From NCBI GenBank assembly GCA_045592905.1, contig JAZNVR010000024.1:1528-65527 (forward strand): DNA of 64,000 nt, written 5' to 3'. This document shows positions 49,604-53,792 of this stretch, piece by piece. Source of the stretch: Candidatus Enterousia sp. (GTDB taxonomy: Bacteria > Pseudomonadota > Alphaproteobacteria > Rs-D84). Under the pieces are notes generated by a model. That model saw only the letters and a program-made list of their open reading frames with translations, was not told the origin of the DNA and did no database searches. The translations under genes and the position numbers were made by a program. Within the stretch, counting starts at the first letter, position 1; each line of letters opens with the position of its first letter.

Positions 49604-50104
49604 ATGGCAAACTTGATTATATTTGGTGTACCAAATGGTGAACAAGCATCTAAATGTGATGAAAACACTAAAAAGTTTTTAGAATCTTTTTATATCACCA
49701 GAACCGGAACACATAAAAAAATGTATACCAGACGCGGGAATGAAACACATTATGTATTGTTAGTATATGCTGATTCTGGAACAAAGTTTCTTGATGCAGG
49801 TGGACGTGGCAATTCTTATTTTGGCATGGATTTTATTCTAAAAAATCAATATGCAACAAATCCAAACAAGATATTTGATTTATTACAAGCCACTTATAAC
49901 CAATATGTCAAAAATAAAATTATCAAAGAATATCCTAATGGTAACAAACAGTGGTTGTATAATAACATTAATATAAACAATGATAAAATTACAAAAGATG
50001 TTATAGATGGCATAAATGAACTAATACGCACCAGACCAGAATTTAATTTGTCTGGTGAAATCAGATCAATGAATCCGATACAAAGTCAAAACGAACGCTA
50101 TTAA
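49604..50104 (+). CDS. Hypothetical protein (166 aa, soluble)
   Basis: ATG after an AAAGGAAAC RBS; N/K-rich; no TM segment; no recognisable motif. Confidence 0.55.
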   Translation: MANLIIFGVPNGEQASKCDENTKKFLESFYITRTGTHKKMYTRRGNETHYVLLVYADSGTKFLDAGGRGNSYFGMDFILKNQYATNPNKIFDLLQATYNQYVKNKIIKEYPNGNKQWLYNNININNDKITKDVIDGINELIRTRPEFNLSGEIRSMNPIQSQNERY

Positions 50105-50126
50105 AATTTATACAAGGAATTTTATT

Positions 50127-50984
50127 ATGAATAAAAAAACAGCAATTATATTAAGCACCGCAATACTATTAAGTGCCGGCATACCAATCGGTATCAAAAT
50201 AAAAAATAAAAAAGAAAAAGAAGAAATAGAAAATACATTAAACAACATTCTGATTCCAAATGCAGAAAAAGAACTAAACGAACTGATGAAACAAAACCGT
50301 CAATTACGGGACAGCATTTGTTATTTGGAAGAATTATTAGAAACATATGAAAAAAGCACAAATATAAATCAATTCTTTCCACAACTGCGGGAAATATTAC
50401 AATTAACACAATCTGTATTGTCTGATTGGCATAAACAATATGATAGTGTACAATCTGAAATTGCAAAACACACAAATACAGACAGCATTCCAGATGCATT
50501 ACAAAGCCAATTATATTTCTTGGAAGAAGAAATTATTCCAAACAATATAGCCAATTCTAAACGTTTAGATTTTTTACTAGAAACATCTGTTAATCAAATT
50601 GAAACAAGTATGAATTATTTTTTACAAGCACCAGAAAAATTAACCGCATTAAATACAGCCATACATGCAAAAAATATTCAGAACAATTTACATACAATTA
50701 AACAAACGATAAACACCCTTAATAATTCTGCAAACACAGTAAAATCTGTAACCTTGCAAAAATTAAAACATGAAATGGGATACATCACATTAAAAATAGA
50801 TTCTATTAATGATAATTTATTTCCAGCAAGCAAAATTTCACAACAAGAAAAAAAGTTACAACAACTGAAACAAAGCAGACAAAACGTAAGCATAAAAACA
50901 AAAGAACAAATACATAAACTGGTAAAATTAAGACATTCCAGAACCGCAGACGAAATGTATCATGCAAAAAAACATCAAAAATAA
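50127..50984 (+). CDS. Hypothetical membrane-anchored coiled-coil protein (285 aa)
   Basis: CAAGGAA RBS. N-terminal anchor MNKKTAIILSTAILLSAGIPIG, then a long N/Q/K/E/L-rich helical region. Starts 22 nt after the preceding ORF. Confidence 0.6.
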   Translation: MNKKTAIILSTAILLSAGIPIGIKIKNKKEKEEIENTLNNILIPNAEKELNELMKQNRQLRDSICYLEELLETYEKSTNINQFFPQLREILQLTQSVLSDWHKQYDSVQSEIAKHTNTDSIPDALQSQLYFLEEEIIPNNIANSKRLDFLLETSVNQIETSMNYFLQAPEKLTALNTAIHAKNIQNNLHTIKQTINTLNNSANTVKSVTLQKLKHEMGYITLKIDSINDNLFPASKISQQEKKLQQLKQSRQNVSIKTKEQIHKLVKLRHSRTADEMYHAKKHQK

Positions 50985-51010
50985 AATCGCCATTTTGGCG
51001 ATTTTATTTT
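50983..51010. terminator. Bidirectional intrinsic terminator
   Basis: AAAATCGCCA-TTT-TGGCGATTTTATTTT between convergent ORFans. Confidence 0.75.
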
Positions 51011-51707
51011 ACTTAGAACGCTGTTTATTAAATGTATATATGACATGACGTATATTTTGTGTCGTGTCATACAATTCTTGCAAATCTATATCTTCTTGGC
51101 GTTCTTCCTTTGATTTTTGTGCAAATGTTTTTTCACGTAGAAAACGTGCATCATTAACATTTTTTTGTCTTAAATTTTCTAAATACAAATCTGCCAACAT
51201 CAAGTTATTACCATGTTCTTTTTGTTCTGCAAGACGCATTTGATCAAATTCGTGTTTTTTTAACGCACAAAGCCAAGATGCAATATCATGATGCGATAAT
51301 GACACAGGTTTATTTAACATGTCTTCTATTTCTAAATCTGCAACCAAATCATCTAAATTTTGTTGTTTTTCAGAAACACTATTAACCTGTGATTGCAGTA
51401 TTTGCTTTCTGTTACGTGAACGTTCACGTGCAGCCATACGCACCCATTTATTAAACGAAAATTTGATAACTTCTGTTTGTGAAAACGAAGGGTGCATTTT
51501 CTTTAATACGCTGTTTAGCATTAATATTGTACGATATAATGGTTTAATAATTTTTATATCAGACTTTGGTTGATTTGTGTTATTGCGTGCATTATATCGT
51601 ATATTTACACCGCCACGAACTGTTGCGGACAATGATTTTGGTGCACGATGCTTGCGTTCTAAATCATCCTTATACAACGGACGTGATATTACTGGTAATA
51701 ATTTCAT
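51009..51707 (-). CDS. Hypothetical basic/coiled-coil protein (232 aa)
   Basis: Internal ATG with an AAAGGAAAT RBS preferred over the track start. Contains RMAARERSRNRK followed by a heptad L/V register. Confidence 0.55.
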   Translation of the reverse strand: MKLLPVISRPLYKDDLERKHRAPKSLSATVRGGVNIRYNARNNTNQPKSDIKIIKPLYRTILMLNSVLKKMHPSFSQTEVIKFSFNKWVRMAARERSRNRKQILQSQVNSVSEKQQNLDDLVADLEIEDMLNKPVSLSHHDIASWLCALKKHEFDQMRLAEQKEHGNNLMLADLYLENLRQKNVNDARFLREKTFAQKSKEERQEDIDLQELYDTTQNIRHVIYTFNKQRSK

Positions 51708-51822
51708 TATATTTCCTTTACTATTAAAAAGAGAAACGTACAGTAACAAATAAAAAATATAATTACAACCTAAATATTTTATTGACATATTTACTTTTAG
51801 TATTAAACTTAATCAAGTTAAT

Positions 51823-52860
51823 ATGTTTGATAGATTTAATAAATTTTTTTCTAAGAATAATACGCATAACACCCAATTGTCATGCGATGACGTTATTTCA
51901 TATAAGAACATTGAAATCCAAGCAGCCACAGAACAAATAGAATTATTACAAAAATACATAAAAACAACATCTGTAATACATAAATTCCTTATATCCCAAA
52001 AGTTTAATAATATCGTACAACATGTACTAAAAGAAAAATTAATAACACCAGACAAACTGATACAACAAATTAAAATAGCAATAACCAAGGATAAATTTCG
52101 TCCACGAAATATGTCCATATGTCTGCTGGCATTATGTATTCAAGATTTGGAAAATATAAATGGCGAATTTGATACTTTTGATTCTAGATTTGCTATTACA
52201 AAATTGATACAAGAACATAAAAGCGACAACCAAATCAGAAATAATTTTAACAACGCAATGTTAAATCGTGATATATTAGCCAAACAATTCGCACATGATT
52301 GGTTAAGATATCTAAACAAACACAAAGATTTGGCCAACAAAACATATAACGCAAATAACAGCGTTTCATTACTATTTTACAATAAATTGTTTCAACAACT
52401 TGCAATTGAATTTTGTTCTGAACACGATATTCCAATTGATAATATTAACGTAAAAATTTTACAAAATTGGTATGATTACGAAGTAAAAGAACGATCAAAA
52501 AAATTAAACAAAAATAAAACACTTGGATTTGTACTATTTAAAAACAAGTCTGATATAACAAATAAATTTACATCTATTGAACTTAGATTATCATTTGACG
52601 CAATAAAAAACGCATGCCGCACAGAAAAAGTTAACTTATTTAATTATATGCTGGCAGCGTTTGCCCATGAAATGAATCATATTTTAGACGAAGTACAACC
52701 ACGTCATGGCAGCGTTGGACCACAAATAATGGAAATAGATAGCAAAATATATGTTAATGGCGATACAAATAAAAAAGAATATTCCAAATCTGCAACCGAA
52801 ATCAGTTCATTCACAATCCAAGATGAAATTATAAGACAGTTAAAACAATACATCAGATAA
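51823..52860 (+). CDS. Hypothetical protein with an HExxH zinc-metalloprotease motif (345 aa)
   Basis: AAFAHEMNHILDE near the C-terminal quarter; otherwise an N/K/I-rich ORFan; weak RBS. Confidence 0.6.
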   Translation: MFDRFNKFFSKNNTHNTQLSCDDVISYKNIEIQAATEQIELLQKYIKTTSVIHKFLISQKFNNIVQHVLKEKLITPDKLIQQIKIAITKDKFRPRNMSICLLALCIQDLENINGEFDTFDSRFAITKLIQEHKSDNQIRNNFNNAMLNRDILAKQFAHDWLRYLNKHKDLANKTYNANNSVSLLFYNKLFQQLAIEFCSEHDIPIDNINVKILQNWYDYEVKERSKKLNKNKTLGFVLFKNKSDITNKFTSIELRLSFDAIKNACRTEKVNLFNYMLAAFAHEMNHILDEVQPRHGSVGPQIMEIDSKIYVNGDTNKKEYSKSATEISSFTIQDEIIRQLKQYIR

Positions 52861-52993: not shown

Positions 52994-53179
52994 GTTCTGT
53001 GTCTGGTCGTGCTGGACAACGGTGAATCTCTTGACGCAAACCAGCCATTCGTTGCTAATAACGCAACTCATGGGGTTTTTATTCATTCGGTTTCCCGTTG
53101 GGAGTGCCAGTTCTGTGTCTGGTCATGCTGGACAACGGCGAATCTCTTGACACAAACCAACCATTCGTTGCTAATAACG
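52976..53179 (+). repeat. Tandem duplication of the tRNA-Glu 3' end plus a 70-nt trailer (2 x 88 nt, 116-nt period)
   Basis: 52976-53063 versus 53092-53179 differ at 4 positions, all transitions. The second copy is preceded by a degraded T-loop (TTCGGTTTCCCG versus TTCGATTCCCG). Confidence 0.9.
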
Positions 53180-53188
53180 TATTTATGC

Positions 53189-53216
53189 TTGACAATTTGT
53201 ATTTTTGTACTATATT
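53189..53216 (+). promoter_or_regulatory. Candidate promoter of the 171-aa ORF
   Basis: TTGACA, 16-nt spacer, TATATT, immediately after repeat copy 2. Confidence 0.4.
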
Positions 53217-53249
53217 ATAGATACAAAAACAATAAAAGGGGATTATTAT

Positions 53250-53765
53250 ATGACTACAAAAGAAGCTATTGCAAAAACTTCTATGATTCTTTTATTTGCC
53301 GCAGGCATTGGGGCAACAAGCATCTTGAATTATGACAAACCTGATTTTTATCAGGACGATTTGGATGTCGCACATAAAAAAGCATTTCGTGCCGAACAAA
53401 ATATCAGTGCAGAATTTGATTTCATTGATCAAGTTGCTTTTAATGAAGTAAAAGAATATCCAGAATATAAAAAGATGGATTCTTTGATTCGTGTACACAA
53501 AACAAACCCAGAAGAATATTATTATCTGGAACCAACTATTGATTCGTTGTATTGCAAAGTAGATTCAATCCATAAAGATATCGCTTCAAAACATATTGAT
53601 AACAGTACTGCTATCACAAATGCATATAAAAACTTAGATGAAGCATACAAAAATGTTGATAAATTAACACAAGACAGTATCAGAAATGATTCTATTGCAA
53701 ATCAACCTGTTATTCAACGTTTCAAAAATAATTGGAACAGGCTTTTTGCACAAAAGCACAAATAA
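53250..53765 (+). CDS. Hypothetical membrane-anchored coiled-coil protein (171 aa)
   Basis: AAAAGGGG RBS. The N-terminal anchor MTTKEAIAKTSMILLFAAGIGAT and the C-terminal ..AQKHK resemble the 285-aa ORF at 50127. Confidence 0.55.
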   Translation: MTTKEAIAKTSMILLFAAGIGATSILNYDKPDFYQDDLDVAHKKAFRAEQNISAEFDFIDQVAFNEVKEYPEYKKMDSLIRVHKTNPEEYYYLEPTIDSLYCKVDSIHKDIASKHIDNSTAITNAYKNLDEAYKNVDKLTQDSIRNDSIANQPVIQRFKNNWNRLFAQKHK

Positions 53766-53792
53766 AAAATCCCCAAAATGGGGATTTCTTAT
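53764..53792. terminator. Bidirectional intrinsic terminator
   Basis: A6-ATCCCCA-AAA-TGGGGAT-TTCTT. Confidence 0.7.

Follow-up and report, generated by a model that had tools for sequence, protein, structure and literature searches.

What occupies an A/T-rich stretch of a gut bacterial genome in which five open reading frames (ORFs), none of recognized function, surround a tRNA-Glu gene? The region under study (49604–53792, 4189 nt) lies in a 64-kb window, that is, the whole stretch of DNA that was analyzed, from a genome of Candidatus Enterousia (992,529 bp in 33 contigs, 36.96% G+C). The first-pass annotation, which was made from the letters alone, had read the region as an accessory or effector islet of five lineage-specific genes (orf1–orf5) interrupted by the tRNA gene. 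We consider it likely that the region represents most of a hypervariable accessory cassette held between tRNA-Gln(UUG) and tRNA-Glu(CUC), together with one backbone gene, orf5. The structural and evolutionary side of this reading, taken on its own, we hold with considerable confidence; the functional inferences are much less certain.

The interval between tRNA-Gln and tRNA-Glu

Synteny was examined in 24 genomes of the genus and in 80 named gyrA loci (L058–L137), the named loci being used for the scripted analyses; in L003–L051 synteny was inferred from coordinates. The same backbone recurs in both the genus genomes and the named loci, namely tolC–marR–tRNA-Gln … tRNA-Glu(CUC)–(orf5)–merR–gyrA–rpmH. 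Nucleotide homology between the window and 26 Enterousia loci ends at 47240–47247, and 47240 is the last base of tRNA-Gln(UUG) (47167–47240, + strand; ARAGORN; Rfam tRNA 57.7 bits). Homology to 18 loci returns at 52875–52921, where 52919 is the first base of tRNA-Glu(CUC) (52919–52993, + strand; ARAGORN; Rfam 61.1 bits). Since homology stops at tRNA-Gln and resumes at tRNA-Glu, orf1–orf4 together with the genes for a NUDIX hydrolase and a short ABC-F ATPase form a single hypervariable cassette of 5678 nt (47241–52918). Inside the interval homology is found only as patches of 65–77% identity, and only with the closest relatives.

In the genus genomes the two tRNA genes are between 0.43 and about 12 kb apart. 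In the 23 canonical named loci the interval measures 405–9131 nt (median 2947 nt), and its mean G+C content is 36.5% compared to 44.0% for gyrA. Gene content is mosaic: the 158 ORFs of at least 80 amino acids (aa) collected from 28 intervals fall into 71 families, 44 of them singletons. Among the recurrent families that of orf5 is present at 17 loci, a family of ~248 aa at 12, orf3 at 8, a family of ~472 aa at 7, orf2 at 6, and orf1 and orf4 at 4 each; SemiSWEET, a GIY-YIG protein, a GT2 glycosyltransferase and an HtrL-like protein recur as well. Homologs of orf1 with more than 50% identity all lie within the tRNA-Gln/tRNA-Glu interval, and the contexts of orf1 homologs taken from a large protein collection are again this interval, with still other neighbors. 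The syntenic homologs of orf2 (5 loci) and orf3 (8 loci) are 26–52% and 29–59% identical, respectively.

The cassette genes (orf1, orf2, orf3, orf4, the short ABC-F gene and others) come, in differing combinations, from a limited set of families that are found only in this genus. Because all five ORFs have homologs in some other Enterousia species they are genus-restricted rather than strict ORFans. The accessory islet itself is supported, since gene content varies even among very close relatives at a fixed site between conserved flanks, base composition deviates, and the genes are not found genus-wide. Both composition and conservation across the genus had been named beforehand as the points on which the islet might fail, and on neither did it do so. 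Its extent has to be redrawn. Rather than interrupting one cluster tRNA-Glu is the boundary of the cassette; orf5 does not belong to the variable unit, which reaches further left than the region under study and takes in ABC-F and NUDIX as well.

The NUDIX gene (47360–47824, + strand, 154 aa; Pfam NUDIX E = 1.2e-10) is a singleton family among the 28 intervals and specific to the cassette of the window lineage. The ABC-F gene (48000–49421, − strand, 473 aa), likewise an accessory gene within the cassette, scores 366.7 bits on NCBIfam model NF000355 [ribo_prot_ABC_F], whose cut-off is 380, and also matches the Vga, Msr and Sal models; by these matches it encodes a ribosomal-protection-like (ARE-like) protein of the short type. 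The first-pass annotation had asked whether this gene keeps its place in relatives. Of 24 congeners 12 have an ortholog that is 59–75% identical, in most cases at another locus, and in L060 an ortholog of 79% identity is syntenic.

To the right of tRNA-Glu, orf5 (53250–53765, + strand, 171 aa) is a widespread, fast-evolving backbone gene outside the cassette. Its family occupies the same position in 17 of the 28 loci, with syntenic matches in G017, G008 and G004. It is followed by the merR-family regulator (53789–54205, − strand; Pfam MerR_1 E = 1.4e-20), found in 38 of 41 related genomes, with which the conserved merR–gyrA–rpmH backbone begins.

Two of the recurrent families are absent from the window or typical of other lineages. 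The ~248-aa family (16 copies at 12 loci, e.g., L052:11042–11770), of which the window has no copy, usually adjoins the 5′ side of tRNA-Glu within the cassette; it displays by eye a kinase-like HNDxxxxN … IDWE pattern and has no Pfam match. The ~472-aa family fills the cassette in a more distant Enterousia clade (L100, L101, L102, L104, L107, L108, L122) and gives weak matches to ART-PolyVal (ADP-ribosyltransferase, E = 5e-5) and HD domains.

Divergence, composition and signals of the cassette genes

Rates of change were estimated against a sister lineage, L052–L054, recovered from metagenome contigs. Amino acid identity to L052 is 98.8% for GyrA, 100% for RpmH, 90% for TolC, 88% for MarR and 88% for MerR, compared to 45% for orf2, 59% for orf3, 58% for orf4 and 79% for orf5. 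The sister has no NUDIX, ABC-F or orf1 gene and carries five others instead (GIY-YIG, 119-aa, 540-aa, 308-aa and GT2 genes). Non-synonymous divergence (dN) is 0.015 for gyrA, 0.063 for tolC, 0.075 for merR, 0.12 for comF and 0.125 for orf5; within the cassette it reaches 0.27 for orf4, 0.30 for orf3 and 0.43 for orf2. Non-synonymous change in orf2, orf3 and orf4 is thus 3–30 times faster than in their neighbors. The ratio of dN to synonymous divergence (dS) lies at 0.13–0.35 for orf2–orf4 (0.31 for orf3) as against 0.04–0.19 for the backbone. Lengths in window and sister are 285/285 aa for orf2, 232/232 for orf3, 345/343 for orf4 and 171/171 for orf5. Since lengths are kept at 45–59% identity and dN/dS is 0.13–0.35, orf2–orf4 are real genes under purifying selection. 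At the nucleotide level the flanks are 83.5% identical whereas the orf2–orf4 block, with a higher dS that is saturated for orf2 and orf4, is 68% identical, which is compatible with replacement of the allele. The orf3–orf4 spacer is 67% identical, compared to 92–96% for backbone spacers.

The A/T-richness seen in earlier spot counts is borne out over the full length of the region. G+C content is 30.2% as opposed to 36.96% for the genome (z = −3.1), a value reached by 1.3% of all 4189-nt windows of the genome; this is the second lowest region of the genome, only C12:15000–29000 being lower. To the left the low-G+C block starts with the ABC-F gene (32.6%), left of 49604; the NUDIX gene, at 40.5%, falls outside it. 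The five ORFs stand at the 2nd–11th G+C percentile among 730 long ORFs of the genome. The deficit is present at all three codon positions: G+C at third positions (GC3) is 0.20–0.23 against a mean of 0.278 (standard deviation [SD] 0.049), about 1 SD low, and at second positions the five genes are at the 1st–12th percentile, their proteins being rich in Asn, Lys and Ile and poor in Gly, Ala, Arg and Pro. Low G+C as proof of a foreign origin was rejected, as GC3 is only about 1 SD low and the deficit falls mostly on codon positions 1 and 2. Mutation pressure toward A/T, acting on genes under weak constraint, would lower G+C in this manner, and a foreign origin would not be required.

Over the whole genome, the ORFs with the lowest 10% of G+C lie nearer to tRNA genes than the other ORFs do (median 4.2 versus 7.5 kb; Mann-Whitney p = 0.0025), and 32% of them, against 19% of the others, are within 2 kb of one (Fisher p = 0.011). 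Because low-G+C ORFs lie closer to tRNA genes, the neighborhoods of tRNAs are to be seen as preferred sites for accessory genes.

A duplicated 3′ end of tRNA-Glu had been noticed before and is real. The sequence at 52976–53179 (+ strand) consists of 1.76 tandem copies of a 116-nt unit, in which 18 nt from the 3′ end of tRNA-Glu are followed by a trailer of 70 nt and a spacer of 28 nt; the tRNA end and trailer make up an 88-nt direct repeat (52976–53063 and 53092–53179) of 95% identity. The copy of the tRNA end lies 99 nt downstream of the tRNA. The two-copy structure is also found in the sister (L052/L053) and in L059, and in other Enterousia species a copy of the tRNA-Glu 3′ end follows the gene at 95–170 nt. 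Throughout the genome 11 of the 43 tRNA genes are followed, 99–233 nt downstream, by a second copy of their final 17 nt (at most 2 mismatches), the examples within the window being 15978–16230 (tRNA-Trp) and 52919–53179 (tRNA-Glu); upstream copies of 3′ ends and duplicated 5′ ends were found for none of the 43. Since 11 of 43 tRNAs have it, and since here it lies outside the cassette and is kept in the sister, the duplication cannot serve as evidence of island integration.

The segments between tRNA and copy contain a terminator hairpin and a stretch with a motif, several of them sharing approximately GGTTCGAC..AGTAGATTTTG..AGTG.AAACGCA.CGAAA.CGT.ACG..CCGAGGGAATAC. Over 147 nt the Tyr and Ser-tga elements share 87% identity, and for tRNA-Met there are two further copies, spaced with a 174-nt period. 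When the tRNA-Glu trailer and the tRNA-Trp element were scanned against Rfam, nothing but the tRNAs was matched. These copies could be miniature elements which target tRNA 3′ ends, or else att scars. In the sister scaffold a run of N (L052:12106–12205) falls exactly inside the tRNA-Glu trailer repeat; as the assembly broke at the repeat, the number of copies in L052 may exceed two. We also considered whether the tRNA-Glu trailer is unusually conserved and rejected this, the trailer being 92–93% identical to the sister, like the backbone spacers (92.6% and 95.6%).

The signals that had been attributed to the five ORFs are confirmed in part. Terminator-like hairpins are over-represented (12 found, 3.8 expected) and their positions agree with four transcription units. 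One with 15 pairs and T runs on both sides (50978–51010) would act as a bidirectional intrinsic terminator for the convergent genes orf2 and orf3, and another 15-pair hairpin (53761–53793) as a bidirectional terminator for orf5 and merR. Promoter-like matches as a whole are not above chance in this A/T-rich region (35 found, 40.8 expected). The site upstream of orf5 (53189–53218, + strand; TTGACA, a spacer of 16–18 nt, TATATT or TATTAT) has the top score in the region with 11 of 12 consensus matches, and its hexamers are kept in L052/L053. An AAGG-type ribosome-binding site precedes four of the five ORFs, orf4 being the exception. The gap between orf1 and orf2 is 22 nt with an AAGGA site before orf2, and these two genes are probably co-transcribed. 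The ATG of orf4 is situated 13 nt past a promoter-like site (TTGACA–16 nt–TAAACT, 51782–51822); this, and the lack of a Shine-Dalgarno sequence, suggests that its mRNA is leaderless or has a very short leader.

Cassette proteins and the HExxH…E family

The first-pass annotation had seen no housekeeping function in the five ORFs; for none of their products was a meaningful match found in Pfam, NCBIfam, PADLOC or PHROGs. PADLOC in particular gave nothing for orf1, orf2, orf4 and orf5, and for orf3 a chance-level match (E = 0.0097) with no aligned stretch.

Orf1 (49604–50104, + strand) codes for a protein of 166 aa, predicted to be soluble, with 11 clusters of relatives among 5.8 billion proteins. 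Its AlphaFold2 model is moderately confident (pLDDT 70.6) and of alpha+beta type; there was no fold match in the Protein Data Bank (PDB) (Foldseek, none at E < 0.05), and a profile search of PDB sequences was empty. Orf2 (50127–50984, + strand, 285 aa) would have an N-terminal membrane anchor, a hydrophobic segment at residues 5–23 (Kyte-Doolittle 2.02), followed by a long helical region. Orf3 (51009–51707, − strand), read from the ATG after AAGGA, encodes a predicted basic, soluble, helical protein of 232 aa with a net charge of +13. It has only 3 clusters among 5.8 billion proteins, no match in 40 relatives by whole-genome search and no homolog among PDB sequences by profile search. Outside the cassette orf5 would again be a membrane-anchored helical protein (hydrophobic segment at residues 7–25), and it has a conserved C-terminal motif, QDSI.NDSI..QP..QRFKNNWN. 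Paralogy of orf2 and orf5 was rejected (hhalign probability 5%), as the two have in common only the N-terminal anchor and helices.

Orf4 (51823–52860, + strand, 345 aa) contains the motif AHEMNH. Its relatives number 10 among 5.8 billion proteins, and a profile search recovered 191 representatives among 1.84 billion. In an alignment of 12 sequences, which takes in two paralogs from the same genome, H282, E283, H286, P293, G296, G299, Q301, Y320, E326, S328 and S329 are invariant. HExxH is found in 144 of 157 family representatives, at a median of 66 residues from the C-terminus, and is followed by E.SS in 97 of the 157. The AlphaFold2 model (pLDDT 77.9) has a helical N-terminal domain and a small alpha/beta C-terminal domain; E326 lies 40 residues past HExxH in a predicted helix (324–344), so that the motif and E326 are placed on consecutive long helices. 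On this sequence pattern orf4 is probably a zinc metallopeptidase of an undescribed HExxH…E family.

Such an arrangement, in which one long helix bears the invariant HExxH and the next the invariant downstream Glu, resembles that of minimal zincin-like metallohydrolases of the gluzincin type. Orf4 differs from these by its 200-residue N-terminal helical domain of no known fold and in that no peptidase family matches it significantly, whether in sequence or in fold. No Pfam family was matched at E < 0.01, a profile search of PDB sequences gave no match, and neither a zincin fold nor membership of a described peptidase family could be established for it. The best Foldseek match is YbeY-like, with a probability of 0.5 and E > 1 (weak PDB neighbors 1oz9, 7y7o and 1tvi), YbeY/AQ_1354 being the sole structural neighbor and a weak one; the site of YbeY is H..H.....H, that of orf4 HExxH.

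An initial peptide-pattern scan of genome contigs with orf4 found no relative. Two paralogs are present in the genome, at C22:36131–37003 (−) and C15:39964–41043 (−), and orf4 and these paralogs are each 58–310 nt from a tRNA gene: tRNA-Glu in the window, tRNA-His in C22 and tRNA-Val in C15. A homolog in another lineage, L055, is about 1 kb from tRNA-Pro. The C-terminal HExxH…E module of ~70 residues also forms the C-terminal end of giant proteins in the library of representatives (P0149, P0153, P0157, P0156 and P0147). Six giants of 1004–2087 aa match the orf4 profile, five of them through this module, and none has a significant Pfam domain, the scans giving a single sub-threshold match to DUF5874. 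Their architecture recalls polymorphic toxins, without the usual delivery domains.

Origin of the cassette and possible role of its products

Members of Enterousia (order Rs-D84) have genomes of ~0.75–1.0 Mb which lack the tricarboxylic acid cycle, respiration and most biosynthesis, and they have been proposed to be obligately dependent on a partner (PMC12306168). The GyrA relatives come from the guts of cattle, yak, sheep, goat, deer and other animals. The genome encodes components of a type IV secretion system and a coupling protein: VirB4 (PF03135, 55.2 bits, C12:25093–25596 in an 814-aa ORF), located in the region of lowest G+C in the genome (~28–30%), and a VirD4/TraG-type coupling protein (PF02534, 110.8 bits, C15:49617–51182 in a 751-aa ORF). 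As in Rickettsiales, the genes for type IV secretion lie dispersed over the genome. Since VirB4 and VirD4 are encoded, the bacterium plausibly has a way of exporting proteins to another cell.

We assume that gain, loss and replacement within the cassette would proceed mainly by homologous recombination across the conserved flanks. Insertion targeted to tRNAs would perhaps help this turnover; a resident integrase-type island would not be the route. The products would act at the interface with a partner cell or host: orf2 and orf5 as membrane-anchored helical envelope proteins, orf4 as a zinc metallopeptidase of a new family, and orf1 and orf3 as soluble proteins, possibly substrates of the scattered type IV secretion system. 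That the cassette proteins are effectors, as the first-pass annotation had considered, is a doubtful proposition.

Several observations weigh against this account. The orf4 model has no significant zincin match (Foldseek against PDB and BFVD, none at E < 0.05), and the single weak hint from Pfam concerns one of its paralogs only (PF12044, E = 0.012). In orf1, orf3 and orf4 the C-terminus is not unusually basic (+1 over the last 25 residues, proteome mean +0.7, SD 3.0), and neither a eukaryote-like domain (Pfam) nor a recognizable secretion signal was found in them. As dS is saturated for orf2 and orf4, rapid evolution in situ and replacement by a deeply diverged allele look alike. Finally, a break in homology exactly at a tRNA 3′ end is also the trace expected of a past integrase-mediated insertion.

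This last point leads to a rival reading, in which the cassette would be what decay has left of one or more integrase-mediated islands inserted at the tRNA-Gln 3′ end; integrase and att repeats would since have been lost, and the present genes would be cargo. The break at 47240–47247 in 26 loci and the atypical composition are what one would look for in such an island; the scar-like copies after 11 of 43 tRNAs and the clustering of low-G+C genes near tRNAs point the same way, and in a related genome an integrase-like gene (Arm-DNA-bind_3 and Phage_int_M, both weak) lies ~3 kb from an orf4 homolog. Yet the seven main ORFs of the interval gave no integrase or recombinase when scanned with Pfam, NCBIfam and PHROG models, and an integrase, excisionase, transposase or phage gene turned up neither in the window interval nor among the eight representative cassette families that were scanned from other loci. 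Allowing up to 3 mismatches, the final 22 nt of tRNA-Gln are present a single time in the window, so that no att-like repeat surrounds the cassette. The region matches phage and plasmid DNA collections only through the tRNA-Glu gene, GC3 is only about 1 SD low, and the gene families occur in Enterousia alone and, for the most part, in this one interval. We regard such an origin as unlikely. A bolder version of our own account would make the cassette one of several tRNA-adjacent “landing pads” served by an undescribed mechanism targeting tRNA 3′ ends, with the 100–230-nt elements as its footprints, the HExxH zincins and orf1/orf3 injected by type IV secretion into the partner, and divergence the outcome of an arms race; this we would call quite unlikely.

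One might also think of a conflict module (toxin-immunity, anti-phage defense or contact-dependent competition) with orf4 as the toxin and orf1 or orf3 as its inhibitor. Fast evolution, patchy distribution and the existence of paralogs would fit, as would the giant proteins of 1000–2087 aa that end in the HExxH module, and orf4-like and orf1-like genes are neighbors in two arrangements, that of the window and that of L081, in which an orf4 homolog stands between two orf1 paralogs. Against this, PADLOC found nothing to match; the giants carry no RHS, PAAR, LXG, haemagglutinin or other Pfam domain at E ≤ 0.001, bar the sub-threshold DUF5874; orf4 homologs elsewhere and the two genomic paralogs are without an orf1 neighbor; and orf4 and orf3 are divergently transcribed and form no operon. 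We find the proposal decidedly improbable. Least probable by far, and already largely refuted, is the notion that the ORFs are decaying pseudogenes or chance ORFs in an A/T-rich spacer. It could appeal to the lack of known domains, the very low G+C and the restricted distribution, but ORFs of 166–345 aa persist in A/T-rich DNA that is full of stops, orf2–orf4 have kept their lengths (nearly) unchanged under purifying selection, there are motifs that do not vary over a large number of sequences, signals for expression are in place (ribosome-binding sites, terminators and a conserved promoter), and the AlphaFold2 models are reasonably confident. The reading that we prefer remains that of a hypervariable cassette between conserved flanks.

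In this form the locus can be set beside several known systems. Flexible genomic islands of streamlined bacteria (Prochlorococcus, Pelagibacter, Alteromonas), of replacement or additive type, lie between core genes and often by tRNAs. With these the cassette shares a fixed site, conserved flanks, gene content that varies in close relatives and an absence of mobility genes, as well as a G+C below that of the flanks, a position adjacent to tRNAs, and cargo biased to envelope or surface and unknown functions. It differs in being very small (0.4–12 kb), with tRNA genes at both ends within a few bases, in its host, a partner-dependent gut alphaproteobacterium of ~1 Mb, and in cargo families that belong to one genus and largely to one site. 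Tyrosine integrases reportedly prefer sublocations at tRNA 3′ ends, as Williams is said to have described in 2002. Islands linked to tRNAs through such integrases likewise start exactly at a tRNA 3′ end and have atypical composition and variable presence, whereas the cassette has neither an integrase nor flanking repeats of the tRNA 3′ end, its far edge is the 5′ end of another tRNA, and its cargo is not common to phages or plasmids. The chlamydial plasticity zone and the variable effector loci of Rickettsiales, the latter served by a scattered rvh-type type IV secretion system, are comparable as to reduced genomes, partner dependence, fast-evolving variable genes at one locus and scattered type IV genes; no homology to their effector families was found, and translocation is here putative.

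A hypervariable islet beside tRNA genes is therefore a familiar kind of feature, and some of the protein families in this one are new. Enterousia, an uncultured bacterium widespread in guts, presumably lives off a partner cell, and the locus marks to the base where the genus holds its most changeable genes. Two membrane-anchored helical proteins, a probable new family of zinc proteases and two small soluble proteins are candidates for interaction with the partner, and the locus could serve as a metagenomic marker which separates Enterousia lineages.

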